From Candidatus Omnitrophica bacterium UBA6233 (GTDB lineage Bacteria > Omnitrophota > Gorgyraeia > Gygaellales > Profunditerraquicolaceae): 64,000 bases of DNA. Shown here piece after piece: positions 31,583 to 57,695 of this stretch. The stretch covers positions 7,409 to 71,408 of the forward strand of contig DJWJ01000016.1 in assembly GCA_002440965.1 (NCBI GenBank). The letters are read 5' to 3'. The notes beneath the pieces were generated by a model. It did not search any database and had not been told where the DNA came from. It saw only the letters and a list, made by a program, of their open reading frames with translations. How positions within the stretch are numbered: position 1 is the first letter of the stretch; each line of letters starts with the position of its first letter. The position numbers and the translations under genes were made by a program.

Positions 31583-31588
31583 TGTTAA

Positions 31589-32763: not shown

Positions 32764-32778
32764 GATTATTCCATAAGG

Positions 32779-41345: not shown

Positions 41346-42293
41346 ATGGCCGGATTAGATTTCGAAAAACCAATCGCTGAATTAGAGAAAAAGATACAGG
41401 ATCTAAGGCATTTTATCTCGGATAAGAAGATAGACCTTTCTTCCGAGGTTAAACGTCTCGAGGATAAACTCGAACATCTTAAAAAAGATACCTACACTAA
41501 TCTTTCCGCTTGGCAAAGAGTGCAGCTGGCCCGCCATCCCCAAAGACCATATACCCTTGATTATATAAACCTAATTATGTCGGATTTTATCGAGTTGCAC
41601 GGAGACAGGCTTTTTAGCGACGACAAAGCTATGGTTTGCGGGTTGGCTAAATTGGATAAACAGAAAATAGCGATTATCGGCCATCAAAAAGGCCGGGATA
41701 CCAAGGAAAACCTTAAGCGTAATTTTGGCTGCGCCCATCCAGAGGGCTATCGCAAGGCGCTTAGGGTTATGCAATTAGCCGAAGAATTTGGTTTGCCGGT
41801 AATAGTTTTTATTGATACGCCCGGAGCATATCCGGGAATAGGAGCGGAAGAACGCGGACAATCTCAAGCTATCGCGCTTAATTTAAGAGAAATGATTTCT
41901 ATTGCTACGCCAATAATTTCAGTTGTTATAGGGGAGGGCGGGTCAGGAGGAGCTTTAGGCGTGGGAGTGACTGATCGCATTTTTGTATTAGAAAATTCCT
42001 ATTATTCCGTTATTTCCCCCGAAGGTTGCGCTGCCATTTTGTGGAAAGACGGTTCAAAGGCGCCTCAGGCAGCTGAGGTTCTTAAACTGACAGGAGATGA
42101 TTTGACCGAACTTAAGATTATTGACGAAGTTATCCCTGAACCTTTAGGGGGAGCTCACCGGGATCCGCAAAAGACAGCCCAAAAATTAAAGGAAGCCCTT
42201 ATTAAGACTCTTAACGAATTAAAAGCTTACAATAAGGATGAGCTTTTGAAATTAAGGTACAAAAAGTTCCGCGACATAGGCATTGTGGCATGA
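41346..42293 (+). CDS. accA: acetyl-CoA carboxylase carboxyltransferase alpha subunit
   Basis: '[18 protein letters not shown]', '[13 protein letters not shown]' and 'GEGGSGGAL'. Confidence 0.85.
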
Positions 42294-42808
42294 TCGAGCA
42301 GGAATTATTATTATTGGGCTTACTTAAAGAAGGCCCCAAGCACGGCTACGATATTAAAACCAAGATAAAACAAATCCTTTCTTTATTCGCCGGAGTAGAA
42401 TTAAAATCCATATATTATCCTTTACGCATACTTGAAAAAAGAGGGTTGGTTGCTAAACGGACACTTAAACCCGGGAAAAGGCCTGAGCGGATGGTTTATG
42501 CTTTAACTTCCAAGGGAGAGGCTCGTTTTAATGAGCTTTTGAATAAAAGTCTGCTTAGTCTCAAGAGGCCTCAATTTAGCCTGGATTTGAGTCTGTATTT
42601 TCTGCACTATATGAATCCCGGAGTGGCAATCCGTCGCTTGCGCGCCAGATTACATATGTTGAATAAGATATCCCACGGCTTGGAACATATGGTTAAAACT
42701 TCATCTAAAGGTAAAACCGTTCCATTAAACCGTATTTTGGAACACAACTTTAGGCTCCTTAAAGCAGAATCCCAGTTTATCTCGCAATTAATTAATACAG
42801 TACAGTAA
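42290..42808 (+). CDS. PadR-family transcriptional regulator
   Basis: '[12 protein letters not shown]...[13 protein letters not shown]' winged-helix motif. Confidence 0.7.
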
Positions 42809-42884
42809 TTTTACTTGACACCATAGCGGCAATTTTATAAAATATAGGTGAGTTTAAATAGTAAAATTTTACTATATAAGAAGG

Positions 42885-43166
42885 GTGTTTCTTATGGATT
42901 GGGATAAGGCTACGCAGGAAAAGTTCAAGGTTATGGTTGCTAAAATACCTGTTTTCCATCGGCATATTACCGAGGGGGTAGTAACTAAGGGAGCACAGGG
43001 GTATGCTCAGGCAAGAGGCGCTGTAAAGATTGAAGAAGTGGATGTGATAAATGCATTTTTCTCGGATGTCCCTGCCGCCTTTTATAGTATGATGGTTAGG
43101 CTGCTGGAGCAGAACGGTTTTGATTATAAGAAATACGGTTTCCCCAAAAATAGACCCCTTATATGA
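42885..43166 (+). CDS. small protein with PCP_red-like (protochlorophyllide reductase 57-kDa subunit C-terminal-like) domain
   Basis: 'WDKATQEKFKVMVAKIPVFHRHITEGVVTKGAQGYAQARG' resembles the stand-alone PCP_red domain. Low certainty. Confidence 0.3.
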   Translation: MFLMDWDKATQEKFKVMVAKIPVFHRHITEGVVTKGAQGYAQARGAVKIEEVDVINAFFSDVPAAFYSMMVRLLEQNGFDYKKYGFPKNRPLI

Positions 43167-44170
43167 GAATCGCGGTTATTGGCGCAGGAGCCATAGGAAA
43201 TCTAGTCGCCGGTTATCTGAAATTGCAGGGCGAAGATGTTTATTTGGTCGGGCGGCAAGAGGCGGTTAGGGCTATCTCAGGGAGCGGGCTCAAGATCAGC
43301 GGTGTGCGGGGAGATTTTCAGGTTAATATCAGTATATACGATATGCTGGTTTCCAAACCCGAGCTCTTAATCTTAACTACAAAAACGCAAGATATAGAGC
43401 CGGCGCTAAAAGATAATTTCAGTTTGATCAAAGATACTATTATTCTGACGACGCAAAACGGTCTTGCTGCCGAAAGAATAGTAGCCAAGTTTGTCCCGGA
43501 AAATAATATTCTTTCGAGCATTGTTATGTTCGGCGCTACTTACCTGGAACCAGGCAAGGTTGTTCATAATTTTGAAGGAAGTTGGGTGTTGGGAAATTTA
43601 TTCTCTGAGTCTATGGATGGGCGCCTGCTTTCTTTAAGCTTGATTTTGGATAAAGCATTTCCGGCGGTAGTTAGCGAAGACATTTTGGGGATGAAATATC
43701 TCAAGGTGTTTGTCAATGCCAATAACTGTATAGCGGCAATATTAGGCGTAAGTATGCAGGAAGCTTTCTTAGACCCCCAGGTGAGCAGAGTAAGCGTTGC
43801 GATTTGGAGGGAAGGTTTTAAGGTAATTTCAAAGTCCGGGCTCAAGCTTGTTTCTTTGCCGGGATTCCCGATTGAAAATGTGACTCGGCTTATTTCTCTT
43901 CCTCCGGAAGAAGCAGCTAAAATTTTCTCGGCAACCATGAGTAAGTTGAGCCGCGACCCGCTCTACGGTTCAATATTACAGAGTATTAAAAGGGGAAGGC
44001 TTTCGGAGGTCGATTATATTAACGGAGAATTTGTAACTTTAGCCGGGAAGTGTAATTTAAAGGCAAGTTTAAATAAAAAATTGGTTGAAATGGTGCATGA
44101 AGTAGAAAAGAATAAACGGTTTTTTAGTAAATCCGAATTTTTAACCGCTACAGAAAGATTATTAAATTAA
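43163..44170 (+). CDS. 2-dehydropantoate 2-reductase family (PanE/ApbA-like) oxidoreductase
   Basis: N-terminal 'MRIAVIGAGAIGNLVAGYL' Rossmann fold; ApbA_C-like C-terminus. Confidence 0.7.
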   Translation: MRIAVIGAGAIGNLVAGYLKLQGEDVYLVGRQEAVRAISGSGLKISGVRGDFQVNISIYDMLVSKPELLILTTKTQDIEPALKDNFSLIKDTIILTTQNGLAAERIVAKFVPENNILSSIVMFGATYLEPGKVVHNFEGSWVLGNLFSESMDGRLLSLSLILDKAFPAVVSEDILGMKYLKVFVNANNCIAAILGVSMQEAFLDPQVSRVSVAIWREGFKVISKSGLKLVSLPGFPIENVTRLISLPPEEAAKIFSATMSKLSRDPLYGSILQSIKRGRLSEVDYINGEFVTLAGKCNLKASLNKKLVEMVHEVEKNKRFFSKSEFLTATERLLN

Positions 44171-44171: not shown

Positions 44172-44768
44172 ATGCCCGAAGTCAATTCGCCTTTCCCAAA
44201 ATTAAAGCTTACAGTTACAGGAGTTTTTGGAAACTGTTACCATGGGTATGAAGCTGGAGATGAAATCATTCTGGAAGATTTTACCCATCCTCCTAAGCAT
44301 TTTTGTTTAGGGTTGGCGCATGCGCTCTTTCCGGTAATTTATGCTTTGAGTTTCGGCGCAAGGTTCGGCTTTCGCGATAATCAGCGGTCACTTTTGGTAA
44401 CTTGTCCTGACGGCGGCAAATTGGAATTTAAAGCCGAGATTCTGGATAAGGAAGGCAAAGTGGAAGTTTTCCCTAAAGACCCCAATCATAAATTTAGTCC
44501 TAAGAAAATGGTTATTGAAGTAGCCAAAACCAAAGGGAAATGCACTTTTGGTTATAAAGTGGGAGATAAATGGGAGACTCAAGGATTGAAATGTATTCCG
44601 GGTTTTTGCGGAGCAGCGTTTCATACAGCGTTTCCGGCGCTCTTCGCTTTAAATTTCGGGGCAAAGTTTTTCTTTATGCAGGATCCGGATTCGATCGATA
44701 CCGTAACCTGCCCTGACGGCGGAAATATTGTGTTTAAGGTTACCAGAGTAGAAGAAAATAAGAAGTAA
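44172..44768 (+). CDS. duplicated Cys-rich domain protein (TIGR04076-like), two tandem ~95-aa modules
   Basis: Internal repeat: 'GNCYHGYEAGDEI...CLGLAHALFPVIYALSFGARFGF...VTCPDGGKLEFKAEI' vs 'GKCTFGYKVGDKW...CGAAFHTAFPALFALNFGAKFFF...VTCPDGGNIVFKVTRV'. Confidence 0.4.
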   Translation: MPEVNSPFPKLKLTVTGVFGNCYHGYEAGDEIILEDFTHPPKHFCLGLAHALFPVIYALSFGARFGFRDNQRSLLVTCPDGGKLEFKAEILDKEGKVEVFPKDPNHKFSPKKMVIEVAKTKGKCTFGYKVGDKWETQGLKCIPGFCGAAFHTAFPALFALNFGAKFFFMQDPDSIDTVTCPDGGNIVFKVTRVEENKK

Positions 44769-44879
44769 GAAATCAATGGCCGATTACCAATATCACAATG
44801 TCGAACGAAATCCCAATGATCCAATGTTTCAATTGTGAATTGGGATTTGTAAATTGGATATTTAGCTTAGGGATTAAAT

Positions 44880-46142
44880 ATGAAAAAAAGAAGAGTAGTG
44901 ATTACGGGGATTGGCGTAATTTCGCCTAATGGCATAGGTAAAGATAAAGTTTATCAGGCGATGACCAACGGCGTTTCCGGAATAAAACGGGTAGATGGTT
45001 TTGATGTTTCGGTATTTAATACCAAGATCGCCGCGGAAGTCCGTGACTTTGATCCGTTTAAGCTCGGGCTTACTCATGACGAAGCTGTACGTATGGATAG
45101 ATACGTACAATTTGGAGTGGTTGCCGGAAATATGGCGATTAAGGATAGCACCCTGGATCTTTCGAAAGTTAATCCTGAGAGGATCGGAGTTTGTCTTGCC
45201 AATGCCATTTGCGGGACAAAATATATGGAAGAAGAATTCGCTCTTGTAACTGACGATGGCAAGAAAGCAATTGATCCGTCAAAGGTCCGTCCTGACCTTT
45301 ATGATGCCGCGATGTTTAATACACCTTCCATTGAATTATCTTCGAAATATCATTTAAAAGGAATATGCAATACGCTCTCAACCGGCTGCACAGCCGGGAC
45401 TGATTCTTTAGGGTTTGGTTTAGAGACGATCCAGGATGGAGAGCAGGATATTATGATTTGCGGAGCGGCAGAGGCTCCGATCACGCCGATTACTTTTGGC
45501 GCTTTTGATGTGGTAAATGTTTTATCAGCCCGTAATGATGATCCTGAAGCTTCGTCACGGCCGTTTGATAACAAACGCGATGGATTTGTCTTAAGTGAAG
45601 GCGCCGGGATTTTAATTTTAGAAGAATTGAATCACGCTTTAAAACGTAACGCCCATATTTATTGCGAGGTTTTGGGTTTTGGCACCAGCTGTAACGCTTT
45701 TCATATGACTGACCTTCCGGGAGACGGAGGAGCAATGACTAATTGTATAACCCTGGCGTTAAAAGATGCCGGGATCAAACCGCAAGAGATAGATTATATC
45801 AGCGCCCACGGATCAAGCACGAAAATGAATGATATCTTCGAAACCAATGCTTACAAAACGGTTTTCGGAGATTACGCGTATAAACTTCCCATAAGTTCGC
45901 TTAAGTCAATGATCGGCCATCCCCTGGCTGCTTCTAACGCCGTGGAGATGACTGTTTGTTCGATGATTTTTGAAAAAAATATCCTTCCTCCGACTATCAA
46001 TCAGGAAGAGAAGGATCCCTTGTGCGACTTGAATTATATTCCCAATAAAGCAATCACCAAAAAAGTAAATACTATTATTAAGACTAGCTCTGGATTTTCC
46101 GGAATTCATTCTTCGTTGGTTGTGAGGAGATATAATGGATAA
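44880..46142 (+). CDS. beta-ketoacyl-ACP synthase (KAS I/II-like; KS-alpha)
   Basis: Active-site Cys 'LSTGCTAGTDSLG'; His 'SAHGSSTKMND'; His 'IGHPLAASNA'; 420 aa. Confidence 0.85.
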   Translation: MKKRRVVITGIGVISPNGIGKDKVYQAMTNGVSGIKRVDGFDVSVFNTKIAAEVRDFDPFKLGLTHDEAVRMDRYVQFGVVAGNMAIKDSTLDLSKVNPERIGVCLANAICGTKYMEEEFALVTDDGKKAIDPSKVRPDLYDAAMFNTPSIELSSKYHLKGICNTLSTGCTAGTDSLGFGLETIQDGEQDIMICGAAEAPITPITFGAFDVVNVLSARNDDPEASSRPFDNKRDGFVLSEGAGILILEELNHALKRNAHIYCEVLGFGTSCNAFHMTDLPGDGGAMTNCITLALKDAGIKPQEIDYISAHGSSTKMNDIFETNAYKTVFGDYAYKLPISSLKSMIGHPLAASNAVEMTVCSMIFEKNILPPTINQEEKDPLCDLNYIPNKAITKKVNTIIKTSSGFSGIHSSLVVRRYNG

Positions 46143-47361
46143 GATAGCGATTACTGGCATAGGTATTGTCAGTCCTTCAGGAATAAATAAACGCCAGTTT
46201 TGGGCGAATATAAAATCCGGCAGGTCTTTTGTAAAAGAAATTACTCGTTTTGATGCTTCTAAATATCCGTCGCATATAGCCGGGCAAATCGATGAGCTGA
46301 ACAAGTATAGCAATATCTCCGAGCGCCTGCTGAAAAAGATCGATGCGTTCTCGCATATGGCTTTAATTGCTTCTGAGCTTGCTTTGCAGGATGCCGGGAT
46401 AGATATAAAGAATGAAGACCCGAATTTAGTCGGCATATTTTTAGGTAACGCTATCGGCGGATGGCTTTACGCTGAAACAGAATTGCGTGATTTATATATC
46501 GAAGGCCGGGAAGGTGTTTCTCCTTACATGGCTTCAGCGTGGTTTCCGGCTGCCCCGCAAGGACAAGTTTCTATTTATTATGGTATTAAAGGATTTTCCA
46601 AAACAGTTGTCGCCGATAGAGCCGGTTCCTTGATGGCCTTAGGTTACGGAGCCAAGGTTTTAAATAAGAATAAATTAAATATGATTTTAGCCGGAGGCAT
46701 GGAAGCGCCGGTGTCGCCTTACGCGCTTTTATGCTGCAATACTTACGGAGCTTTATCCAAAAATAATTCCCAGCCTCAAGAAGCTTACAAGCCATTTGAT
46801 AAAAAGCGCGATGGCTTTGTAATCGGTGAAGGCGCGGGGATTGTGGTTATGGAGAGTGTGCAGAGGGCAAGTAAAAGAGGAGTTAAACCTTTGGCTTATA
46901 TTTCCGGATACTCGACCAGCTGCGACGGAATTGACCGGATCAATTGCGCAAGCGACGGGGTAGAATTAGCCAGAGCAATAAAACTAGCGCTTGCCGATGC
47001 TAAAACCAATATTGATGAAATTGATTATATAAGTCTAGATGGCGCGGCTATAAATTTGTGGGATGATTCTGAACTGCAGGCGATTAAAAGCATTTTTGGC
47101 GCCAGGACCAAAGATATTCCAATGAGTTGCCCTAAATCTATGTTCGGAAATTTACTGGGGGCAAGTGGAGCGGTGGATATGATTACTACTATCTTAGCGA
47201 TGGAACATAGTTTGGTTCCGGTTACTTTAAATTTAGACGAACCAAGTATGAAAGGTTTTAATTATATTACAAAAGAAGCCAAGGAATACAAAATCGATAA
47301 AGCCCTGGTGATTTCGCGCGGCAGGGGCGGAATCAATTCAGTTCTGGTGGTTGAAAAGTAA
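46135..47361 (+). CDS. ketosynthase-like partner lacking the catalytic triad (chain-length-factor / KS-beta-like)
   Basis: KS fold, but the active-site Cys is replaced ('VVADRAGSLMAL') and both His positions are altered ('LDGAAINL', 'GNLLGASGA'). 8-bp overlap with the KS-alpha gene. Confidence 0.7.
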   Translation: MDKIAITGIGIVSPSGINKRQFWANIKSGRSFVKEITRFDASKYPSHIAGQIDELNKYSNISERLLKKIDAFSHMALIASELALQDAGIDIKNEDPNLVGIFLGNAIGGWLYAETELRDLYIEGREGVSPYMASAWFPAAPQGQVSIYYGIKGFSKTVVADRAGSLMALGYGAKVLNKNKLNMILAGGMEAPVSPYALLCCNTYGALSKNNSQPQEAYKPFDKKRDGFVIGEGAGIVVMESVQRASKRGVKPLAYISGYSTSCDGIDRINCASDGVELARAIKLALADAKTNIDEIDYISLDGAAINLWDDSELQAIKSIFGARTKDIPMSCPKSMFGNLLGASGAVDMITTILAMEHSLVPVTLNLDEPSMKGFNYITKEAKEYKIDKALVISRGRGGINSVLVVEK

Positions 47362-47368
47362 ATAGTTT

Positions 47369-47500
47369 AATGACAAATGACAAAATCCAAAGCACAAAAT
47401 AAATCTAAAGTTCAAATGTCAAATACTAAAACTAATGTTTTGTTATTTAATTTTTGGAATTTGAATTTATTTTGGATCTTGTGCTTTGTCATTTGACATT
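47369..47500. repeat. intergenic long palindromic repeat, family 'AATGACAAATGACAAAATYCAAAGCACAAAATAAAT', copy A
   Basis: The 5' arm 'AATGACAAATGACAAAATCCAAAGCACAA' is mirrored by 'TTGTGCTTTGTCATTTGACATT'. Lies between the KS-beta stop and the rSAM RBS. Confidence 0.7.
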
Positions 47501-47515
47501 AAAAGAGGAGGAGTT

Positions 47516-48976
47516 ATGAAGATATTATTTGTAATGCCTAAAGTCGGTGCCTGGGCAACCCATGGGATTCACCGTTCGCCGAATCAGTTATACGCGCATT
47601 GGGCTGCTTATGTGCGTGAAAAAGGATATAAGGATGTGGCGGTTATTGACGGTAAAGCTGAGCAGATTCCGATGGATCAGCTTATCGAACAGGTAAAACT
47701 TAAGAACCCCGATGTGGTGGTAATGGGTGAGCAGCTGCATGGTTATGGCGGATACGGAGTTTTACGCCATTTTAAAGACGCGGCCATTGGAATTAAAAAA
47801 GCCCTGCCTAAAACCAAGATAATTCTCGGCGGATTATGGTATTCGGCAATGCCTGTTCCGACTTTAGAAGAAATTCCGGAAGTTGATTTCGTGGTTATGG
47901 GAGAAGAGGAGTCATTTGGAGATTTAATCGAGGCAATTGATAAGAATAAGCCGCTTAAGGATGTTGGCGGAGTAACTTCGCGCATCGATGGTAAGATAGT
48001 CATGGGCCCGCATAAACCATTGATGACGGATTTGGATAAATTACCTTTACCGGCTTATGATTTGTTTCCGATGGATAAGTACTCGGGCCACACTTATTGG
48101 AAACCGTTTGTGGATATGGTTACTTCCCGCGGCTGCCCTTCAGCCTGCACATTTTGTTATGAGTGGGATCAGTTTGATCCGCGCTCGCCTTCGGATTTCT
48201 TAAAATGGCGCGCCAAGAGCCCAGAAAGAGTAATTGAAGAATTGAAACTCCTGCGCGATAAATACGGAGTCAAAGTAGTAGTAATTCAGGATGATAATTT
48301 TATCGTGGATCCTGCGCGCGTCAAGAAATTCTGCGAGTTAAAAAAGAAAGCTAACATTGATACCAAATGGGTTGCTTTGGGCAGGGCTACTGATTGGATC
48401 AATTGCGAATCGATCTTACCTCTGATGAAAGAAACAGGTCTATTCATGGGAGTCTTTGGAATTGAAGTAACTACCCAGTCGGAACTTAAGAAGATCGCTA
48501 AAGGTATAACCATTGACCAGATCCAAAAGACAATCGATATCCTGCGCAAACAGAATATCGCGATTGTCGCTGACATTATGATGGGTTTTGATTATGATAC
48601 CGAAGAAATAATTAAGCAGCGTTTTGAGTTTACCGACGCGGTGGATCCGGATATTTTATGGGTTGGTTACGTGACTCCTGCGCCGAATTCGCCGATGTGG
48701 AAGGTTGCCTTAAAGAAAAACTGGATCGATCCCAAGAAAGTGGATTTCTCGACCTGGGATTTTCTGCACCCGGTAATTCCTACGGATCACTTAACTACTG
48801 AAGACTTAGGCAGGCTTGGTTCATGGTGTATGCGCGAATTTTTCTCCAAACCCGGACGGGTCAACCGGATCATGGAGAGCGATTTTGATCCGCTGGCCAA
48901 GCTTTGTTTCCAGGATGTTATGAATGGCATCAACAAGTGGGAAGCAGCCGCGACCAAGGGCGAAGTTCAGATATAA
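47516..48976 (+). CDS. B12-binding-domain radical SAM enzyme (class B rSAM)
   Basis: N-terminal cobalamin-binding-like domain; 'SRGCPSACTFC' CxxxCxxC motif. RBS AGAGGAGG before the ATG at 47516. Confidence 0.8.
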   Translation: MKILFVMPKVGAWATHGIHRSPNQLYAHWAAYVREKGYKDVAVIDGKAEQIPMDQLIEQVKLKNPDVVVMGEQLHGYGGYGVLRHFKDAAIGIKKALPKTKIILGGLWYSAMPVPTLEEIPEVDFVVMGEEESFGDLIEAIDKNKPLKDVGGVTSRIDGKIVMGPHKPLMTDLDKLPLPAYDLFPMDKYSGHTYWKPFVDMVTSRGCPSACTFCYEWDQFDPRSPSDFLKWRAKSPERVIEELKLLRDKYGVKVVVIQDDNFIVDPARVKKFCELKKKANIDTKWVALGRATDWINCESILPLMKETGLFMGVFGIEVTTQSELKKIAKGITIDQIQKTIDILRKQNIAIVADIMMGFDYDTEEIIKQRFEFTDAVDPDILWVGYVTPAPNSPMWKVALKKNWIDPKKVDFSTWDFLHPVIPTDHLTTEDLGRLGSWCMREFFSKPGRVNRIMESDFDPLAKLCFQDVMNGINKWEAAATKGEVQI

Positions 48977-48990
48977 GCTAAAGGAAGGAT

Positions 48991-49227
48991 ATGGAGATGA
49001 AAGCGAAAGTTAAAGAAGTTTTGGTTAATTTGCTCAAAGTCAAACCTGAAGAATTAAAGGATGGTGTTTCTTTGGAAGAGAGTATAGGCGTGGATTCAAC
49101 TGAAATGGTTGAGTCAGTCATTGCTCTGGAAAAGGCTTTTGGAGTGAAGTTAAGCCCTAAAGAAATTAGCAAGTCTTCCAGCATTGACGATATCGCGAAA
49201 ATTATAAGTAGCAAGATAAGCGTTTAA
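48991..49227 (+). CDS. acyl carrier protein
   Basis: 78 aa; phosphopantetheine-attachment context 'GVDSTEMVESVIALEKAFGV'. Confidence 0.7.
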   Translation: MEMKAKVKEVLVNLLKVKPEELKDGVSLEESIGVDSTEMVESVIALEKAFGVKLSPKEISKSSSIDDIAKIISSKISV

Positions 49228-49328
49228 TGACAAATGTCAAAATTCAAATGTCAAAATTCAAATGTAAAAACCAAGGTATTTAGTTTTGTAATTTGCGCTT
49301 TGACATTTGAATTTTGACATTTGACATT
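49226..49328. repeat. intergenic long palindromic repeat, same family, copy B
   Basis: 'AATGACAAATGTCAAAATTCAAATGTCAAAATTCAAATG' is mirrored by 'CTTTGACATTTGAATTTTGACATTTGACATT'. Lies between ACP and the cyclase gene. Confidence 0.7.
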
Positions 49329-49340
49329 AGCTATTTATTC

Positions 49341-50138
49341 ATGAAGATTATTGATTTAAGTCTTCCAATAGATGACAAGGCGTTTGAGGTGCACAAGGTA
49401 GCCATTGAGCGGGTAACTCATAAGGCGGGGATTAAGAAGTTTAACCGCGTGATTATGGGTAAGACGCTGGCGGGAAGAGTTAAATACCTTTTGGGAAAAC
49501 GCATCCTCAAGAAAGAAGATTTACCTGACGAAGAATTTTTATCACTGGAAGTCGTGCATTCTCCGGTTCACGTCGGCACCCACCTGGATTATTCATTCCA
49601 TTACGGATCAAAATCCGAAAACCGCACCTCTAAAACAGCCGAAGAGATCCCGCTGGAATATTGTTATCAAGACGGAGTAAGGCTCAATCTTACCCATAAA
49701 AAACCCAATGAAAAAATTCTTTCCGCGGATATCGAAGCAGCGCTTAAAAAAATAAATTATAAATTAAAACCTCTGGATATTGTTTTTTTGCATACCGGAG
49801 CGGATAAGTTTTTTGGTTCGCCAAAATATTTCTCGGATTATCCGGGAGTGGATACTTCGGCGATAGATTATCTTTTGGACCAGGGAGTCAAGATTTTTGG
49901 GGTGGATACAATGGGTATTGACCGTCCATACAGGTTTATGCTTAAAGAATTCCTGGAGAGTAAAAATCTTAAGGCTTTATACCCGGCGCATTTTTATGGA
50001 AGAAAAAGAGAATTCATCCATATCGAGAGGCTGGCTAATTTAGAGAAGCTTCCGGCAACTGGGTTTAAGGTTATTTGTTTTCCGGTGAAGATTAAAAATA
50101 CAGGCGCGGCTTGGTCGCGAGTAGTTGCAATATTATGA
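49341..50138 (+). CDS. cyclase-family protein (PF04199-like; kynurenine-formamidase/putative-cyclase fold)
   Basis: 'MKIIDLSLPI' start and 'HSPVHVGTHLDYSFHY' (HxGTHxD) metal-binding motif. Start moved to 49341 because the tabulated ORF start runs into the repeat. Confidence 0.65.
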   Translation: MKIIDLSLPIDDKAFEVHKVAIERVTHKAGIKKFNRVIMGKTLAGRVKYLLGKRILKKEDLPDEEFLSLEVVHSPVHVGTHLDYSFHYGSKSENRTSKTAEEIPLEYCYQDGVRLNLTHKKPNEKILSADIEAALKKINYKLKPLDIVFLHTGADKFFGSPKYFSDYPGVDTSAIDYLLDQGVKIFGVDTMGIDRPYRFMLKEFLESKNLKALYPAHFYGRKREFIHIERLANLEKLPATGFKVICFPVKIKNTGAAWSRVVAIL

Positions 50139-50191
50139 CACCCGGCCTTAAAGGGTAGGCCGGTGTGCGCTTTCTGCGCAAGGAGGATTAA

Positions 50192-50629
50192 ATGGGACAC
50201 ACTTGTAATTCGATAATAATCAAGGCGCCATATGATTTAGTATTTGATATTTCCAATGATATCCCGCGCTGGACCGAATTATTTGGCAGCGAATACAAAA
50301 AAGCTGAGATTACAAAAAAAGAAGAGAACAAGATTACTTTTTGCCTGACTGATGATGAAGATAAGTCTTGGATTTCTTGGAGACTGCTTTATAAAGACAA
50401 ATTCTTTACTTATTCTGAAAGGCAGGAGCCGAAATTTCCGTTTAAATATATGAAAATCGTCTGGCTCTATACCCAAAAGCCGGAAGGAGTGGAATTAACC
50501 TGGATTCAACATTTTGAAATGGATGATAAAGCCAAGTTCAATGATGAGCAGGTCGAGGGCTTCATTAATAAGCATTCCAAAGACAATCTGTTAATTTTTA
50601 AGAATGTAATTGAAAAAGCAGCAGCTTAA
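50192..50629 (+). CDS. SRPBCC (Bet v1/START-like) polyketide cyclase/dehydrase-like protein
   Basis: 'SIIIKAPYDLVFDISNDIPRWTELF' is typical of the Polyketide_cyc2/SRPBCC N-terminus; 145 aa. Confidence 0.55.
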   Translation: MGHTCNSIIIKAPYDLVFDISNDIPRWTELFGSEYKKAEITKKEENKITFCLTDDEDKSWISWRLLYKDKFFTYSERQEPKFPFKYMKIVWLYTQKPEGVELTWIQHFEMDDKAKFNDEQVEGFINKHSKDNLLIFKNVIEKAAA

Positions 50630-50657
50630 AACAATGCTCCGCGCATAGCGCGGAGTT

Positions 50658-50692
50658 AAATAAGCGCCAAGCGCCAGTGGCGGCGCTTATTT
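50658..50692 (+). terminator. stem-loop (AATAAGCGCC...GGCGCTTATTT), preceded by a second hairpin CTCCGCGC-atag-GCGCGGAG
   Basis: 10-bp perfect stem with a T-rich tail. Immediately upstream of RBS AAGGAGG of the SDR gene. May act as an intra-operon attenuator or RNA-stability element. Confidence 0.45.
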
Positions 50693-50705
50693 AAGGAGGT
50701 AGAAA

Positions 50706-51482
50706 ATGAATCAGGACTTAAAAGGTAAGGTAGCGATTGTAACCGGAGCAAGCCGAGGGATTGGCAAGGCTCTTGCCTGCACTGCGGCAAGCTTAGGAGT
50801 AAATTTAACTATTGCTGCCCGCGGAGAAGGCCAATTAAAAGAAGCAGCTGAAGAAATCGCCAAAAAATATAAGGTAGATGTTTTAGCTGTTCCTTGCGAT
50901 GTCACTAAATTAGAGGACCTCGAGAATTTGGTGAATAAAACCAAGGAGAAATTCGGTAAGATCGATATTTTGATCAATAACGCCGGAGTTTCTTCGCAGT
51001 ATCCATTTCAAGATCAGCCGATTGAGGATTTTGAGCGCCTGGCCCATACAAATTATTTGGGTTATGTGCGCCTGATCCGTTTGGTTATCAACGATATGAT
51101 CAAAAATAAAAGCGGCGCGATCATCAATATGGTTTCCGGCTCTACTCTTTGCGATCCGCTACCCAGGAATTTTATCGTTTATAGCTCATTAAAAGTCGGT
51201 TTGCGCGCGTTCTCTAAAGGGTTATTTTGGGAATTGCGCGACCACGGTATCAAAGTTACTTCGATATTGCCCGGGGTTACGGACACGGATCTGACCGGAA
51301 AATTAAGCGAGATTACCGCTGATACTAAAAGATTGATGAGCACTGAGGCAATCGAAGACGCGGTCAGGTTTGCTTTGACTGTGCCGCAGAATGTTTGTCC
51401 CCTAGAGATCGCGGTAATCAATCAGCAAACCCCGTGGACAGCTCCGGTAATACCATTTGCACAGAAGCATCCGGGAAAATAG
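50706..51482 (+). CDS. short-chain dehydrogenase/reductase (FabG/ketoreductase-like)
   Basis: 'GKVAIVTGASRGIGKALA', 'NNAG' and 'YSSLKVGLRAF' (YxxxK). Confidence 0.8.
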   Translation: MNQDLKGKVAIVTGASRGIGKALACTAASLGVNLTIAARGEGQLKEAAEEIAKKYKVDVLAVPCDVTKLEDLENLVNKTKEKFGKIDILINNAGVSSQYPFQDQPIEDFERLAHTNYLGYVRLIRLVINDMIKNKSGAIINMVSGSTLCDPLPRNFIVYSSLKVGLRAFSKGLFWELRDHGIKVTSILPGVTDTDLTGKLSEITADTKRLMSTEAIEDAVRFALTVPQNVCPLEIAVINQQTPWTAPVIPFAQKHPGK

Positions 51483-51546: not shown

Positions 51547-52155
51547 GTGAAAAAAATATTTTTAGCGGCGGCATTGTTATTAGGGATAACAGGAATTAGT
51601 TTTACGGCAGATGGAAATTTGCTGGTTGATGATTTTGAGATCGCGGTTTCAGCTGGGCCAGACGGCACAGTTGATTTTGGCGCGGGAAACGGCTCAATTA
51701 TAAAAGTTACCGCGGCCGCGGATGTTAAAAATACCGGAAAACAAGGTCTAAAGGTTGATTTTGACGCGGTTACCGGCGGGTATATGTATGTTGCCCGCGG
51801 CGAAGGGCTTGACGCGCATAATACCGGCTGGCTCGTAAATCCGGATAGCATCAAATGGCAGGATTATAAGGCATTTTCTTTTTATATGTATGGCTCAGAT
51901 TCCAAAGGTAAAATAGCTTTTGATCTTAAAGACAGTGGAAATGAAATCTGGCGTTTTATAGTTGAAGATAATTTCAAGGGGTGGAAGCAGATCATCTGTA
52001 ATTTTGATCAATTTACCGTAAGGGGCGATTGGCAGCCGCAAACAGCTGATAATAACGCGGCGCTTAATTTTCCGATCCGTTCATTTCAATTTGAGCCGCT
52101 TCCTCCATTAAAGGGCACGATTTATTTTGATACAATGGAGTTGATCAAGAAATAA
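51547..52155 (+). CDS. secreted hypothetical protein (beta-sandwich / carbohydrate-binding-module-like)
   Basis: Signal peptide 'MKKIFLAAALLLGITGISFTA'. No catalytic motif recognised. Confidence 0.4.
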   Translation: MKKIFLAAALLLGITGISFTADGNLLVDDFEIAVSAGPDGTVDFGAGNGSIIKVTAAADVKNTGKQGLKVDFDAVTGGYMYVARGEGLDAHNTGWLVNPDSIKWQDYKAFSFYMYGSDSKGKIAFDLKDSGNEIWRFIVEDNFKGWKQIICNFDQFTVRGDWQPQTADNNAALNFPIRSFQFEPLPPLKGTIYFDTMELIKK

Positions 52156-52547
52156 TGAATAAGCGGGATTTAAAGAACTTAAAAAAGCGTTACCTCATCT
52201 GGTTTTATAAGACTTCCAAAGAGGCGCTTGATAAAGTCGAGCGGAAATTCAGCCAGGTTGATATCGACCGTTTTATTCTTAAGGAATTGCAAGCTTCGGA
52301 TAAGGATAAAGCGGTTGAACTTTTGATCGCTCAGTTTGAAGCGTATATTCAAAAGAAGGAAGCAGATGGCCTTGACTTAAAGTTCGAGAATAAGAAGTTA
52401 AAGCCGGATTATTTATTCCTTTCCTGGAAATTAGAAGCAATTGAAAAAGCGATTGTCAAAGAGCTGGGTAAAAAGGGGCTCGAAGAGATAAAGCTTCTCT
52501 ATGAAGTTGAGATGATTGAGCGAATATTGAGAAGTACAGAACATTAA
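52155..52547 (+). CDS. hypothetical protein
   Basis: 130-aa charged, helical ORF; no recognisable motif. Confidence 0.3.
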   Translation: MNKRDLKNLKKRYLIWFYKTSKEALDKVERKFSQVDIDRFILKELQASDKDKAVELLIAQFEAYIQKKEADGLDLKFENKKLKPDYLFLSWKLEAIEKAIVKELGKKGLEEIKLLYEVEMIERILRSTEH

Positions 52548-52760: not shown

Positions 52761-53669
52761 ATGATTATAGACAGTCATAGTCACTGGTTACCTGAAGGAA
52801 TAATCAATAGCGCCCATTTCTATCATAAAGGTTGGGGAGATATTGAGGCTCAGCTTAAGATGATGGATGCGGCGGGGATTGCTAAGGCGGTTTTAACATA
52901 CCCAACTTCTGACGCGCATTTAAAAATGGGGAGTATCTCTGAAGTCGTGCGTATATTTAATGACCACGTCGCTAAAATCATCAAAAAATATCCGGATAGA
53001 TTTATCGGAGCGGCAATTCTTCCCATAGACCACCAGCCGGATATGCTTAAAGAAATAAAGCGGACTACAGAAGAATTGGGATTTAAAGCTATTTCTTTAG
53101 CAACTAGTTATGGCGGAGTTTATTTGGATGATGCTAGATTTATGGATGTATATAAGTTAGCCCAAAGCAAAAATTTACCGATCTTTGTGCATTCGCAGAT
53201 TGTTAAGCCGATAGGAACTGAGCGCGTAGAGGATCCGCTACTTACTCCGGTAATTGAGTATGTGTTTGATACGACGATGTGTATTGGCAAGCTTTTGATG
53301 TCGGATATTCTGCGCGATTACCAGACTAAATTTATTTTTGGTTATTTTGGCGGAGTTACGCCGTTTTTGGCAAATAGATTTGACGCGACTTATCAAATGC
53401 TGCGAGGGATGAACTTTGTTAAGGATTTGCAAGCTAAGCCTACAGAATTATTAAAGAATATTTATGTGGATACTAGCGGAGATACGACTAAAGCTAATTT
53501 TCAGGCAGCCTTAGAGTTGTTCGGGCCGCAGCATATTTTATGGGGGAGCGACTGGCCAGCCAAGCGCGACATCGCTCCAGGCATCAATGCAATCAAAGAA
53601 TTGAATATATCCGACGCGGATAAGAATAGTATATTAGGCGGTAATTTAGCTCAGCTTTTTGCTCTTTAG
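52761..53669 (+). CDS. amidohydrolase-2 family (PF04909, TIM-barrel metal-dependent hydrolase/decarboxylase)
   Basis: 'MIIDSHSHW' and 'ILWGSDWP' are hallmarks of the ACMSD/amidohydrolase_2 family. Confidence 0.7.
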   Translation: MIIDSHSHWLPEGIINSAHFYHKGWGDIEAQLKMMDAAGIAKAVLTYPTSDAHLKMGSISEVVRIFNDHVAKIIKKYPDRFIGAAILPIDHQPDMLKEIKRTTEELGFKAISLATSYGGVYLDDARFMDVYKLAQSKNLPIFVHSQIVKPIGTERVEDPLLTPVIEYVFDTTMCIGKLLMSDILRDYQTKFIFGYFGGVTPFLANRFDATYQMLRGMNFVKDLQAKPTELLKNIYVDTSGDTTKANFQAALELFGPQHILWGSDWPAKRDIAPGINAIKELNISDADKNSILGGNLAQLFAL

Positions 53670-54206: not shown

Positions 54207-54581
54207 ATGATAAAATTCTTAAATCTGGTTATCGGCGGGGCAGCGGGGACGATTGCCCGTTATTTGCTGGCAGGGTTTGTGTATAGGGTGGCAGGGACAA
54301 GTTTTCCTTACGGAACGCTTATCGTAAATGCCTCCGGATGTTTTATCTTAGGGATCTTGGCTTCTTTAGCGGATAAGAAATTTGTGCTTGGGCCGGATGC
54401 CAGAATATTATTGATGATCGGTTTTTGCGGCGCGTTTACTACCTTTTCAACTCTGATATTTGAATCCGATAATCTGGTTAGAAATGGGCAGGCAATAAAA
54501 GCATTCAGTAATATATTGATTAGTGTAATTTTAGGCTTTATTTTATATAGAGTCGGTTCTTTATTAGGCGAGATTATTTAA
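54207..54581 (+). CDS. crcB: fluoride ion channel CrcB/Fluc
   Basis: 124 aa, four TM helices; 'GGAAGTIARY' and 'GFCGAFTTFSTL' motifs. Confidence 0.85.
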   Translation: MIKFLNLVIGGAAGTIARYLLAGFVYRVAGTSFPYGTLIVNASGCFILGILASLADKKFVLGPDARILLMIGFCGAFTTFSTLIFESDNLVRNGQAIKAFSNILISVILGFILYRVGSLLGEII

Positions 54582-54594
54582 ACCGGGAGATAAA

Positions 54595-54927
54595 ATGAAA
54601 ATTCCTGCGGACGGTAAGCTCTTAAGAATTTTTATCGGCGAAGCGGACAAATGGAATGGCAAACCGCTTTATGAAGAGATCGTGCTTCTGGCCAAAAAAA
54701 CAGGGATGGCTGGAGCAACTGCCATAAAAGGATTTATGGGTTTTGGATGCAAGAGCCATATGCATACTGCAAATCTGCTCAGATTATCCGAAGACTTGCC
54801 GATTGTCATTGAAATCGTCGATAGCGAGGATAAGATCAACACGTTTATCCCTCAACTTGATAGTATGGTTAAGGAAGGTTTAATTACTCTGGAAAAAGCT
54901 AACGTAATCATGTACCGCGCGCAATAA
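54595..54927 (+). CDS. DUF190-family protein (PII-like; commonly paired with crcB)
   Basis: 'LLRIFIGEADKWNGKPLYEEIV...GATAIKGFMGFG'. Confidence 0.7.
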   Translation: MKIPADGKLLRIFIGEADKWNGKPLYEEIVLLAKKTGMAGATAIKGFMGFGCKSHMHTANLLRLSEDLPIVIEIVDSEDKINTFIPQLDSMVKEGLITLEKANVIMYRAQ

Positions 54928-54943: not shown

Positions 54944-55693
54944 ATGCAAATGGTAAAAGATGTGCATCTGACGGGAAAAGATCTGACACAAATGGTTCAA
55001 TTACGCCAGCAGGATGTGGGCAAATACGCGATTGTTCCGGGCCCCAAGGATAGGCTGGAAGTTTTAATGAAGAAAATCGAGAATCCGGTCAAGAATTTTA
55101 CTTTTATGGAATATTCCATGTTCACCGGGACTTATCAAGGGATCAAGATTACCATGATGAACGGCGGAAGATTTTCTACGGATACCTCGATTACCTCGGA
55201 AGTAATGTGCAATGCCAGAATTGATAATATTATCCGCGCGGGCTCTGCCGGTTCTTTGGATGAAAATATAAAAGTAGGAGATTTATTCGTGGTTGATGAA
55301 GTTATCCGCGGAGACGGGGTTACGCCTTATTATGTGGATAAGGACTTTAAAACAGTTGCCGATAAAAAAATTGCCGATACGCTTTATGAGGCGGGTAAGG
55401 CTATGGGTATAAATATCCATCGTGGAAAGGCCTGGAGCACGGATGCGCTTTTACGCGAAACCAGAGAAATCGTCGAAGCTAAGCGTAAAGAGGGGGCAAG
55501 AGCCGTAGATATGGTCTCTTCAACGCTTTTGACCATTGCCCAGACTTATGGCGTTAAAGCAGGTTCGATCCTGGCCGTAAGCGATAATGTGATTACCGGC
55601 GAAATGGGTTTTATGAATCCATTGTATTATATGGCTGAGGCGAATATTTTAAAAATTGCCCTTGAGGCAGTGGTAAAATTAGAGGGAAAATGA
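54944..55693 (+). CDS. PNP/UDP-family nucleoside phosphorylase (MTA/5'-deoxyadenosine/purine nucleoside phosphorylase-like)
   Basis: 'IDNIIRAGSAGSL' and 'VDMVSSTL' are typical of the PNP_UDP_1 fold. Confidence 0.65.
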   Translation: MQMVKDVHLTGKDLTQMVQLRQQDVGKYAIVPGPKDRLEVLMKKIENPVKNFTFMEYSMFTGTYQGIKITMMNGGRFSTDTSITSEVMCNARIDNIIRAGSAGSLDENIKVGDLFVVDEVIRGDGVTPYYVDKDFKTVADKKIADTLYEAGKAMGINIHRGKAWSTDALLRETREIVEAKRKEGARAVDMVSSTLLTIAQTYGVKAGSILAVSDNVITGEMGFMNPLYYMAEANILKIALEAVVKLEGK

Positions 55694-56658
55694 AATTTTC
55701 TCCGCTTTTCTGGCCGATCCAGTTTAAAAACGGGATAATTTATATCCTTGATGAAACTCTCCTGCCGCATAAGCTTACCTATATAAAGGCAAAGAACTAC
55801 CAGGAGGCCTGTCGCGCGATAAAAGAAATGAAAACCCGGGCTGTGGGCCAGGTCATTCTGGTAATGTATATTTTTCTGCAATTACTCGAGCAAGGGAAAA
55901 AGAAAGACCTGGTTAAAGTTGCTCAAGCTATCAACTCTACCCGTCCGACTTTATCATTTAAGTTTTTAACCGATATGGTTTTGGGTTGGGCTAAATCCGG
56001 CGCTCCTTTAGATAAATGCATTACGGGATTTTTAGAAGGTTTAAAATACAGCCGGATCAAACAAGCTGAAGAAGCCAGCAAATTAATTAAAAGCGGTGAT
56101 TGCATATTAACTCATTGCAATATCAGTGGTCTCCTGCCTTTAATCGGAGAAATTTGTCAAAAGCAGGGTAAAAAGATAAGTTTTTTCGCGACTGAAACCC
56201 GTCCATATATGCAAGGCTCGCGTTTAACTGCCTGGGAGTTAAAACAAGCCGGATTTGACGTAACCATAATCACCGATAATATGGTTGCCGCGGTTATGTC
56301 TTTGGGTAAGGTAAATAAAGTTATTGTCGGCGCGGATCATTTGGCGCAAAACGGAGATATCGCCAATAAAATCGGAACTTATGGAATCGCGGTCTTAGCT
56401 AGACATTTCAATCTGCCTTTTTATGTTTTATGCCCGCCGGCTTCCGGATTAAAGAGCGGCAAAGATATCAAAATCGAGATCAGACCGGATATCGAGATGC
56501 TTGAGTATCAGGGTTTGCGCTTGGCGCCTATTGGCGCGAAAGGTTATTATCCGGCATTCGATGTTACTCCCAATAAATTAATTACCAAACACATCCATTT
56601 AAATGTAGGGACGGTTCTCAATTCAAGGCAGAAGTGTCCCCGGAGGGGACAGTTTTAG
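55690..56658 (+). CDS. eIF-2B alpha/beta/delta family isomerase (MtnA-like 5-(methylthio/deoxy)ribose-1-phosphate isomerase)
   Basis: 'GADHLAQNGDIANKIGTYGIAVLARHFNLPFYVLCP'. Confidence 0.75.
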   Translation: MKFSPLFWPIQFKNGIIYILDETLLPHKLTYIKAKNYQEACRAIKEMKTRAVGQVILVMYIFLQLLEQGKKKDLVKVAQAINSTRPTLSFKFLTDMVLGWAKSGAPLDKCITGFLEGLKYSRIKQAEEASKLIKSGDCILTHCNISGLLPLIGEICQKQGKKISFFATETRPYMQGSRLTAWELKQAGFDVTIITDNMVAAVMSLGKVNKVIVGADHLAQNGDIANKIGTYGIAVLARHFNLPFYVLCPPASGLKSGKDIKIEIRPDIEMLEYQGLRLAPIGAKGYYPAFDVTPNKLITKHIHLNVGTVLNSRQKCPRRGQF

Positions 56659-56693
56659 GTTGGTTTGAGAACCGTCCCTAATAGAGGAGAGAG

Positions 56694-57695
56694 ATGATTT
56701 TTAGCAGAGAGAGGGCGTTAAAAAAAGAAATAATTCAAGTTGGCAAACATCTTTATCGGAATAGGCTGGCTGTGGCTAAATCCGGGAATTTAAGTGCGCG
56801 CCTGGATGCTGAAAACATACTGATTACTGCAACCGGAACATCGCTAGGGGATTTAAAATATAAGGATATTGTAAAAGTAAATTTAAGCTCTGAGAAAGTT
56901 TGCGGTGAGGCCAAGCCCAGTTCAGAGTTACCTTTACACGCTCTTGTTTATAAGAATTTCGATTCTAAAGTTGTGATTCATGCCCACCCTCCTTTAATCA
57001 ACGGTTATTTTGCGGTTACCTCAGATTTAAAGGCCTTAACCTTCGAGACTAAATTTTATCTGGGGAATATTCCGGTTATTGAGCAAGATACTCCTACTGT
57101 AACTAAACCCGGAGCAGTCATAAGCGCGTTGAAATCCAATAGTTTAGTTATACTGAAGAATCACGGGATAGTGGCGATAGCTGATAAATTCGGCGACGCG
57201 CTTAATTTAACTGAAGCCCTGGAAGAGGCAGTGCGTAGCGCTGCTTTGGCCAGAATATTCCAGAAAGATATTCTTGATGATTTGGACAAGGTTTTAAAAG
57301 AAGATTTGGCCAAGGATGTCGCATATACAATGTTTTCTCCAGAGCATATCCAGGCGATTGTAGATTTAGTGAATAAAGACGAATTCATTGCTCAAAAAGG
57401 GAAAGAACAGGATTTAACGGTAAAGCTGGCTATAAAATTGGACGGAAGCGATAAAGCCTACAAATTTAATTTCGAAAAAGGAAAAATCGTAAAATTGGAT
57501 TTTGATAGCGAGGCGCCATTTGTAATTTCTGCCCCGGCCAATGTCTGGGAGCAGGTGTTTTTGGGTAAGCTCGATTCGTTTGTGGCGGTTACCCAGGGGA
57601 AAATGAAATTGCAGGGACAATTGGGCCAGCTTTCCAAGTGGTATGTGCCCTTTACTCGGCTTTTTGGGATATTTAAGGAAGTAAAGATAAAATGA
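56694..57695 (+). CDS. class II aldolase/adducin-family protein (MtnB/Ald2/FucA-like) with C-terminal extension
   Basis: 'SGNLSARLD', 'VVIHAHPPLINGYFAV' and 'LKNHGIVAI' metal-binding motifs; extra ~120-aa C-terminal region. Confidence 0.7.
   Translation: MIFSRERALKKEIIQVGKHLYRNRLAVAKSGNLSARLDAENILITATGTSLGDLKYKDIVKVNLSSEKVCGEAKPSSELPLHALVYKNFDSKVVIHAHPPLINGYFAVTSDLKALTFETKFYLGNIPVIEQDTPTVTKPGAVISALKSNSLVILKNHGIVAIADKFGDALNLTEALEEAVRSAALARIFQKDILDDLDKVLKEDLAKDVAYTMFSPEHIQAIVDLVNKDEFIAQKGKEQDLTVKLAIKLDGSDKAYKFNFEKGKIVKLDFDSEAPFVISAPANVWEQVFLGKLDSFVAVTQGKMKLQGQLGQLSKWYVPFTRLFGIFKEVKIK

Follow-up and report, generated by a model that had tools for sequence, protein, structure and literature searches.

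A probable type II polyketide synthase locus with a B12-binding radical SAM enzyme, conserved in Candidatus Omnitrophota

Nearly all known type II polyketide synthases (PKSs) come from aerobic actinomycetes, where they occur sporadically as clusters for antibiotics or pigments. Here, we describe a gene cluster from Candidatus Omnitrophota, an uncultivated, ultra-small and anaerobic phylum, located in a 64-kb stretch of contig DJWJ01000016.1 of Candidatus Omnitrophica bacterium UBA6233. This whole stretch is called the window, and positions refer to it unless a related locus, labelled with an L-number (e.g., L008 or L087), is named. Judging from its gene content, the cluster is probably a type II (i.e., iterative, discrete-enzyme) PKS for an aromatic product, vertically inherited in the phylum. 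A complete type II PKS with a fixed gene order in such a phylum would be an unusual distribution.

Four described systems bear on this locus. The anthraquinone PKS of Photorhabdus (AntA-I) includes AntD, which was solved together with AntE and AntF (6SMO) and is the best solved-structure match of the ketosynthase (KS) described here. It is likewise a non-actinobacterial set of KS, chain length factor (CLF) and acyl carrier protein (ACP) accompanied by a ketoreductase, an aromatase and a cyclase. Its CLF lacks the canonical glutamine, and a CoA ligase is part of the system and required by it (PMC6638757). The Streptomyces WhiE spore-pigment system and the tetracenomycin (Tcm) system have the core of KS-alpha, partner and ACP in common with our locus, as well as an aromatase/cyclase whose residues are kept. 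Anammox Cluster I comprises amxACP, amxFabZ, amxFabF2/amxFabFmut and a B12-binding radical SAM (rSAM) enzyme, and its FabF pair (PDB 9S5H) forms a KS/CLF-like heterodimer (bioRxiv 10.64898/2026.05.19.726425). The likeness consists in a FabF-like KS whose partner has lost the triad, an ACP of its own, a cobalamin rSAM enzyme and conservation in a PVC lineage, and the amxFabF2/amxFabFmut heterodimer is a useful functional analogue. Finally, BchE and HpnJ have an N-terminal B12-binding domain and a CX3CX2C core in common with the rSAM enzyme of our locus.

Omnitrophota have appeared in the type II PKS literature at the level of sequence listings. A survey of these systems lists KS-CLF pairs from 14 phyla, one of them ‘Candidatus Omnitrophica’ (PMC10132072). 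It is a sequence catalogue without cluster content, phylum-wide conservation, rSAM enzyme, decarboxylase or product, and no Omnitrophica entry was found in its text-form supplementary files; the pairs it lists probably belong to the same locus family. The main genomic account of the phylum is silent on polyketides (PMC10066038), and this locus may be what lies behind antiSMASH ‘ladderane’ calls published for Omnitrophota metagenome-assembled genomes (PMC9902471). The cluster has no described product, in agreement with an earlier note on this DNA, which had suspected an undescribed pathway.

Ketosynthase pair, cyclases and tailoring enzymes

The earlier note had described eight co-directional, tightly spaced genes at 44172-51482. 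All eight were recovered in the open reading frame listing, on the plus strand and with short spacers between them, and domains were assigned by Pfam and NCBIfam profile searches of the window proteins. The boundaries proved too narrow. The conserved unit runs from a 90-aa gene and a PanE-like reductase (from 42894), behind a PadR regulator, to at least a decarboxylase (ending at 53669). The invariant order is the 90-aa gene, the PanE-like reductase, the tandem TIGR04076 gene, KS, the KS-like partner, rSAM, ACP, the PF04199 cyclase, an SRPBCC protein, an MFS gene where present, a short-chain dehydrogenase/reductase (SDR), a CBM11-like gene where present, a 130-aa gene and an amidohydrolase_2 gene. 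All of these lie on the plus strand.

The KS (44880-46142; ketoacyl-synt N and C domains) is KS-alpha-like. Its triad Cys170/His310/His347, located by alignment to AntD and FabF, is present as the note had read it and is invariant in 68 orthologues. Among solved structures, the KS scores 370 bits against AntD (6smo_B) and 364 bits against the act KS (1tqy_A), and at most 344 bits against every FabF. It falls below the FabF equivalog cutoff (TIGR03150; 451 vs. 494 bits) and above that of the NCBIfam ‘beta-ketoacyl-ACP synthase II’ subfamily (441 vs. 387 bits). No second KS is found in the 64-kb window.

The KS-like partner (46135-47361; ketoacyl-synt N and C domains) resembles a CLF and is 31% identical to the KS. 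In alignments, Arg162, Asp302 and Asn339 occupy the triad columns Cys/His/His, in line with the note's reading that all three catalytic residues are missing. The 8-bp overlap it reported is also real: the ATG of the partner overlaps the KS stop (ATGGATAA, 46135-46142), and the KS is translationally coupled to a catalytically dead partner. Asp161-Arg162, Asp302 and Asn339 are invariant in 72 orthologues of the window's lineage (lineage 1) and in two of a second lineage (lineage 2, described below). The invariance of the Arg/Asp/Asn state in 74 orthologues suggests that it is selected and is not a product of decay. Against the anammox 9s5h chains, the KS and partner score 273 and 190 bits, below AntD, the act KS and the FabFs. 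The dedicated ACP (48991-49227; PP-binding, E = 1e-9) carries an Asp35-Ser36-Thr37 motif that is invariant in 78 orthologues.

The SRPBCC protein (50192-50629; Polyketide_cyc2 and Polyketide_cyc) is a mono-domain aromatase/cyclase of the TcmN/WhiE type, which strengthens its earlier description as ARO/CYC-like. Its sole matches in the PDB are WhiE ORFVI (3tl1, 3tvr, 2kf2; E = 2e-23) and TcmN (E = 4e-21). TcmN residues Trp28, Phe32, Glu34, Tyr35, Trp65, Ser67, Arg69, Arg82, Met91, Trp95 and Gln110 are all identical in the aligned protein, including Tyr35 and Arg69, which we take to be the catalytic pair. The exclusive match to WhiE and TcmN and the retention of these residues point to first-ring cyclization of an unreduced chain.

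The second cyclase candidate is a metal-dependent enzyme of the PF04199 ‘putative cyclase’ family (49341-50138; 96 bits), a family also represented by cyclases in actinomycete type II clusters. Its HxGTHxD motif is invariant among orthologues. The protein is distant from isatin hydrolase (E = 6.5e-7), and an identity as kynurenine formamidase was ruled out (TIGR03035; 25 bits vs. a cutoff of 223). Its start is most likely at 49341 rather than 49314. In a population variant of the same contig (L002 and L003, 11751-12659), an additional 36 bases lie at the cyclase start or ahead of it, with a called product of 302 aa vs. 265 aa.

Two reductases accompany the cyclases. The note's SDR ketoreductase (50706-51482; adh_short, 175 bits) is indeed an adh_short SDR; it is a generic classical one, not demonstrably a C-9 ketoreductase. 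The PanE/ApbA-family NAD(P)H reductase (43163-44170; ApbA and ApbA_C; TIGR00745, 167 bits vs. a cutoff of 141) is colinear in all loci and, by its family, a probable tailoring ketoreductase. At the downstream end, an amidohydrolase_2-family protein (52761-53669; PF04909) resembles the non-oxidative aromatic-acid decarboxylases LigW, ACMSD and gamma-resorcylate decarboxylase. Its PDB matches are 5-carboxyvanillate decarboxylase (E = 1.6e-21), ACMSD and gamma-resorcylate decarboxylase, enzymes that strip the carboxylate from aromatic acids. The gene lies downstream in 54 lineage-1 loci and also at the end of the lineage-2 cluster.

FabZ, FabA, FabI, FabH and FabD were not found in the 64-kb window. 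The KS scores, the WhiE/TcmN-type SRPBCC protein, the aromatic-acid decarboxylase and the lack of fab partners together place the locus among type II aromatic PKSs. They also bear out the earlier statement that this is not a standard fab operon.

Conservation, the radical SAM enzyme and linked genes

The extent of the locus was followed by an rSAM scan with one genome per GTDB species, which returned 187 relatives; the best 80 (84-98% identical) were used for synteny. Gene order was read from a tblastn table wherever the contig reached, with accA as the housekeeping yardstick. The block is colinear in 80/80 species genomes, and thus the arrangement is not due to chance. Median identities to the window are 89% for rSAM, 86.5% for SDR, 85% for TIGR04076, 83% for KS, 81% for SRPBCC, 80% for accA and 79% for both the KS-like partner and the PF04199 cyclase. 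By these sequence comparisons, the cluster is conserved across the phylum as strongly as a housekeeping gene, or more so. The GC content of the cluster is that of its flanks. High identity, fixed order and flank-like GC content together argue for vertical inheritance under strong constraint and against recent acquisition. The earlier note had held that a conserved core fatty-acid operon in related genomes would speak against its reading; the conservation is there, phylum-wide, but the operon is not one for fatty acids.

All named homologues belong to Candidatus Omnitrophota, and the contig recurs in several JGI metagenomes. GTDB records titled ‘uncultured Planctomycetales bacterium’ (L008, L024, L025, L028, L030 and others) show this locus in the same gene order and are ~90% identical to Omnitrophota genomes there; these organism labels are probably wrong.

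A rearranged version of the cluster defines lineage 2 (L087 and L089). It begins with PadR, a FadD-like ligase, one or more nucleoside phosphorylases and MtnA-like isomerases, a class II aldolase and an aldehyde dehydrogenase, followed by rSAM, the 90-aa gene, the PanE-like reductase, KS, partner, ACP and cyclase. In L087, these are followed by SRPBCC, MFS, a class I methyltransferase, SDR and amidohydrolase_2; the genes called beyond the cyclase in L089 differ from those of L087. Identities to lineage 1 are 71% for KS, 67% for SDR, 64% for the partner, 56% for SRPBCC and 48% for rSAM. TIGR04076 is absent from lineage 2, and an MFS gene, a methyltransferase and a ligase are additions inside the cluster.

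The rSAM gene (47516-48976) encodes a class B, BchE/HpnJ-like enzyme with B12-binding and Radical_SAM domains. It starts at the ATG at 47516, behind AGGAGG, instead of the TTG at 47486, and the ATG form is the protein recorded in public assemblies while the TTG form is not. The motif Cys207-x3-Cys211-x2-Cys214 is invariant among orthologues, and the gene is the most conserved of the block. The best characterized families are BchE (TIGR02026; 203 bits vs. a cutoff of 481) and HpnJ (154 vs. 578), and the ladderane-associated family TIGR04072 (rSAM_ladder_B12) gives 70 bits against a cutoff of 360. The nearest PDB match is AprD4 (E = 1.7e-14). No bch, chlorophyll or hopanoid genes are found near the rSAM gene.

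An exhaustive search of representatives at 50% identity placed the next relatives after lineage 1 at 48%, 45% and 37-38% identity. Those at 48% are Omnitrophota too and have the same cluster rearranged. When metagenomes were scanned with the 37-45% relatives as seeds, 80 loci were recovered, for the most part from soil and rhizosphere, and none of them has a KS nearby; the rSAM relatives in L092-L170 are 36-37% identical. Most of the 80 loci have an SDR alone downstream. Within the searched data, the combination of the KS pair with this rSAM enzyme is confined to Omnitrophota. One metagenomic locus (L110, 10001-15751) holds a cassette of rSAM, SDR, a FAD_binding_4 oxidase, a PqqC/haem-oxygenase-like protein and an O-methyltransferase; this cassette gave no clue to the rSAM chemistry.

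Further genes connected to rSAM activity follow the decarboxylase. A nucleoside phosphorylase, an MtnA-like isomerase (TIGR00524; 195 bits vs. a cutoff of 186), a class II aldolase and an NAD aldehyde dehydrogenase lie at 54944-59179 on the plus strand. By sequence, this set resembles the DHAP shunt for 5'-deoxyadenosine and methylthioadenosine (MTA). The DHAP shunt recycles 5'-deoxyadenosine, which is both a by-product and an inhibitor of rSAM enzymes (PMC10986504, PMC6079011). Linkage of the salvage genes to the block holds in 38 of the 40 lineage-1 loci with enough sequence, where an IF-2B gene follows the decarboxylase, and the lineage-2 cluster contains all four salvage genes between its ligase and rSAM.

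The window breaks off inside a gene for a FadD-like AMP-forming acyl ligase (63080-64000, plus strand), whose orthologue in lineage 2 is the ligase within the cluster (51% identity over 307 aa by tblastn). A full-length copy in L172 (11343-12851) is 54% identical to the L087 ligase, which itself scores 455 bits against PRK06187, a long-chain-fatty-acid-CoA ligase. The ligase may activate a starter acyl group or, as the CoA ligase of the Ant system is needed to do (PMC6638757), assist ACP loading. A PlsC-like acyltransferase gene is also near the cluster.

Several accessory genes belong to the block. The tandem TIGR04076 protein (44172-44768; 98.4 bits vs. a cutoff of 33) contains two Cys/His-rich repeats, as the note had described, and has no Pfam match. 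Its Cys/His sets are invariant, and the gene occurs in lineage 1 only. The AF2 model is of medium confidence (pLDDT 68) with a weak XdhC-like resemblance, Foldseek returned no match for it in the PDB, and the literature offers nothing on TIGR04076 function beyond passing mentions of the family in two papers. The 90-aa protein (42894-43166, gene call) has sub-threshold similarity to DUF2621 (PF11084, E = 0.011) and PCP_red (PF08369, E = 0.14). Its gene is always paired with that of the PanE-like reductase, with a 4-bp overlap; it is found in 57 lineage-1 loci, and the lineage-2 version is 54% identical.

An MFS efflux gene (e.g., L008, 13103-14239) lies between SRPBCC and SDR in 42 of 64 lineage-1 loci, and also in L087. 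At the exact position of this gene, the window has two perfect GC-rich hairpins with 8-bp and 13-bp arms (50637-50694), perhaps the scar of a deletion or an attenuator within the operon. Between SDR and the decarboxylase, most lineage-1 loci encode a CBM_11-like protein with a signal peptide and the 130-aa protein (51547-52547 in the window). Both are far less conserved, with medians of 61% and 54%, and in L087 a PC4-domain gene stands in their place.

Proposed pathway and competing explanations

A pathway may be proposed for the type II PKS. The heterodimer of KS and partner would condense malonyl-ACP units into a poly-beta-ketoacyl-ACP, the ACP being loaded by the cell's own FabD and modified by a phosphopantetheinyl transferase (PPTase) encoded elsewhere. 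The starter could be acetate, derived from malonyl by decarboxylation, or an acyl group that the linked FadD-like ligase activates. Folding of the unreduced chain and aromatization of its first ring would fall to the mono-domain aromatase/cyclase, and the PF04199 enzyme would close a further ring or release the chain, while the SDR and the PanE-like reductase would reduce carbonyls. The B12-rSAM enzyme would supply an oxygen-independent step, C-methylation or a BchE-like oxidation or cyclization, of the kind done by oxygenases in aerobes, and the amidohydrolase_2 enzyme would take off the terminal carboxylate. The product is expected to be phenolic or quinonoid. PadR would sense it and regulate the operon, the MFS pump would export it in about two thirds of lineages, and the linked salvage genes would dispose of the 5'-deoxyadenosine made by the rSAM enzyme.

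Several observations weigh against the PKS assignment or parts of this pathway. The margin by which the KS prefers KS-alpha proteins over FabF is modest (~7%) and comes from a ranking of bit scores. The partner scores 264 bits against FabFs and only 239 against the act CLF, and it does not have the glutamine of actinobacterial CLFs, with Asp161-Arg162 at that site; with the higher FabF score and no glutamine, its CLF status rests on its position and its dead triad. AntE, a characterized non-actinobacterial CLF, likewise lacks the glutamine and has Asp there (PMC6638757). The PDB neighbours of the SDR are generic (clavaldehyde dehydrogenase, FabG) and not specifically act-type ketoreductases. 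The PF04199 enzyme is tied to type II PKS cyclases by its Pfam family name. The rSAM enzyme scores above the cutoff of no characterized family, so that its chemistry cannot be assigned from family, and the rSAM step may differ between the two lineages, given 48% identity for rSAM vs. 71% for KS. The TIGR04076 and 90-aa proteins are without an assigned role in the scheme, and neither a PPTase nor a malonyl transferase is in the window. Lastly, conservation this strong is unusual for type II PKS clusters and could signal another function.

The same conservation suggests that these cells need an aromatic polyketide, which would be essential to them or nearly so, and it favors a core physiological function over a dispensable antibiotic. 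In a specific form that we consider rather unlikely and put forward tentatively, the product would be a core metabolite, i.e., an oxygen-independently tailored aromatic polyketide such as a redox carrier or shuttle of the quinone type, or a ligase-primed phenolic lipid. Omnitrophota would depend on it and inherit it vertically, with a BchE-like B12-rSAM enzyme replacing the oxygenase chemistry of aerobes. If true, a type II PKS would for the first time be seen to serve as primary metabolism across a bacterial phylum, and the rSAM enzyme would represent a new type of class B reaction acting on polyketides.

The product of the same chemistry could instead be an exported secondary metabolite, a toxin or antibiotic of putatively host-dependent or predatory nanobacteria, a possibility that we take seriously while doubting it. 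Most of the characterized products of type II PKSs are pigments or antibiotics with bioactivity, the MFS efflux gene sits inside the operon in two thirds of lineage-1 loci and in lineage 2, and PadR regulators are common controllers of responses to phenolic compounds. Omnitrophota are moreover predicted to be host-dependent (PMC10066038). However, identity as high as that of accA or higher over 80 species, strict synteny and flank-like GC content speak against a secondary metabolite. The MFS gene is gone from a third of the genomes, the window included, while the enzymes are kept, and the linkage to a salvage pathway suggests sustained flux.

A specialized lipid pathway (ladderane, aryl polyene or modified fatty acid), in which the KS pair would elongate a chain and the B12-rSAM enzyme remodel it, is improbable. 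It draws on the parallel with the KS, dead KS, ACP and B12-rSAM of anammox Cluster I (bioRxiv 10.64898/2026.05.19.726425), on the membership of both Omnitrophota and anammox bacteria in the PVC group, on the ‘ladderane’ calls mentioned above, and on the nearby FadD-like ligase and PlsC-like acyltransferase. Yet the cluster has no dehydratase or enoyl reductase and thus cannot make a saturated or polyene chain. Neither an amxFabZ-type dehydratase nor a phytoene-desaturase homologue was found in the window or in related loci. An aromatase/cyclase with its catalytic residues kept and an aromatic-acid decarboxylase would have no place in such a pathway. A ladderane pathway was rejected on the failure of the rSAM enzyme at TIGR04072 and on the anammox FabF pair being a more distant match than AntD, the act KS and the FabFs. 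Aryl polyene clusters are defined by dehydratases, two ACPs, a thioesterase and a LolA-like protein or RND/MMPL exporter beside KS/CLF. With one ACP, and with no second ACP, dehydratase, thioesterase, LolA-like protein or RND exporter in the annotated neighbourhood, this candidate was rejected as well. The earlier note had left the choice open between a type II polyketide and a specialized lipid; the KS, dead partner, ACP and two cyclases sustain the former half, and the lipid half, aryl polyenes and ladderanes included, is not supported, with neither a dehydratase nor an enoyl reductase present.

A housekeeping fatty-acid elongation system, i.e., a degenerate fab operon in a streamlined genome, would explain the phylum-wide conservation and agrees with identity at or above that of accA, with the adjacency of accA in many genomes, with the subfamily match of the KS and with the lack of another KS in the window, but it is very improbable, as there is no FabD, FabH, FabZ, FabI or FabG-type equivalog in 64 kb, the KS lies under the FabF equivalog cutoff and nearer to PKS KS-alpha proteins, the partner is catalytically dead, and cyclases, decarboxylase, MFS exporter and PadR are not components of fatty acid synthesis. 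A separate fab operon is likely present elsewhere in the genome.

Surroundings and comparison with described systems

The PadR-family regulator (42290-42808, plus strand; PF03551, E = 8e-14) opens the unit in lineage 1 and lineage 2 alike, and heads the rearranged cluster in L087 and L089. Upstream of it, the alpha subunit gene of acetyl-CoA carboxylase carboxyltransferase, accA (41346-42293, plus strand; Pfam ACCA/Carboxyl_trans), adjoins PadR in 25 related loci; it is a supplier of malonyl-CoA and a neighbour outside the cluster core. The PadR, accA and PanE/ApbA-like genes noted upstream of the eight genes are thus all present, and Pfam searches recovered the domains given for the rSAM, ACP, PF04199 and SRPBCC genes. 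Between PadR and the first biosynthetic gene lies the best sigma-70-like promoter match of a regional scan (TTGACA-17-TAAAAT, 42815-42843, plus strand; 11 of 12 positions matched). Promoter and terminator scans were at chance level overall, with total promoter hits not above the shuffled expectation, and thus this site is a positional lead only. An Rfam search of the window found no riboswitch, the only matches being two tRNAs (3987-4207).

The window also contains genes that touch on the host and its chemistry. Hydrogenase maturation genes hypF, hypC, hypD and hypE (about 8300-19000) fit with an anaerobic host. A lysine-2,3-aminomutase-like radical SAM gene lies beside two ATP-grasp genes and an EF-G paralogue (19977-25177). 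A row at 30781-35534 encodes a MamF/MmsF-family membrane protein (30781-31119), PilZ, PKD-repeat and Peptidase_MA_2 proteins and an STT3-type oligosaccharyltransferase homologue (33873-35534). Past a 540-bp gap, crcB, which encodes a fluoride channel, and a DUF190 gene lie between the decarboxylase and the salvage genes (54207-54927), and no fluoride riboswitch near crcB reached the Rfam gathering score.

If the PKS assignment is right, the locus would offer a tractable entry to the oxygen-free tailoring of aromatic polyketides and a compact, low-GC and probably E. coli-compatible KS/CLF for engineering. It would also give a chemical handle, and possibly a biomarker, for a phylum still without a cultured member.

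The differences from the described systems are several. The aromatase of the Ant system, AntH, is tri-domain, whereas the locus here has a mono-domain enzyme of the TcmN/WhiE type. The Ant cluster has its own PPTase, of which there is none in the window, and it is without a B12-rSAM enzyme, TIGR04076, a PanE-like reductase or an amidohydrolase_2 decarboxylase, all of which are present here. The distribution of Ant is sporadic, in contrast to conservation across a phylum. WhiE and Tcm belong to aerobic actinomycetes and have a glutamine-containing CLF, oxygen-dependent mono-oxygenases and extra cyclases of the cupin or TcmI type; the locus here has an Arg/Asp/Asn partner, a B12-rSAM enzyme, two reductases and a decarboxylase in an anaerobic, low-GC host. 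Unlike in anammox Cluster I, the rSAM enzyme is not of TIGR04072, and aromatic-polyketide cyclases are present. Scores far below the BchE and HpnJ cutoffs and the lack of chlorophyll or hopanoid genes suggest that its substrate also differs from theirs.

Thus, the locus is set apart from Ant, WhiE and Tcm by its invariant Arg/Asp/Asn partner, the corresponding residue being Gln in actinobacterial CLFs and Asp in AntE. It is also set apart by its B12-rSAM enzyme, by the TIGR04076, 90-aa and PanE-like proteins and by its vertical, phylum-wide conservation. An Arg/Asp/Asn partner, a BchE-like B12-rSAM enzyme, a tandem TIGR04076 protein, a non-oxidative decarboxylase and linkage to 5'-deoxyadenosine salvage have not been described together before.

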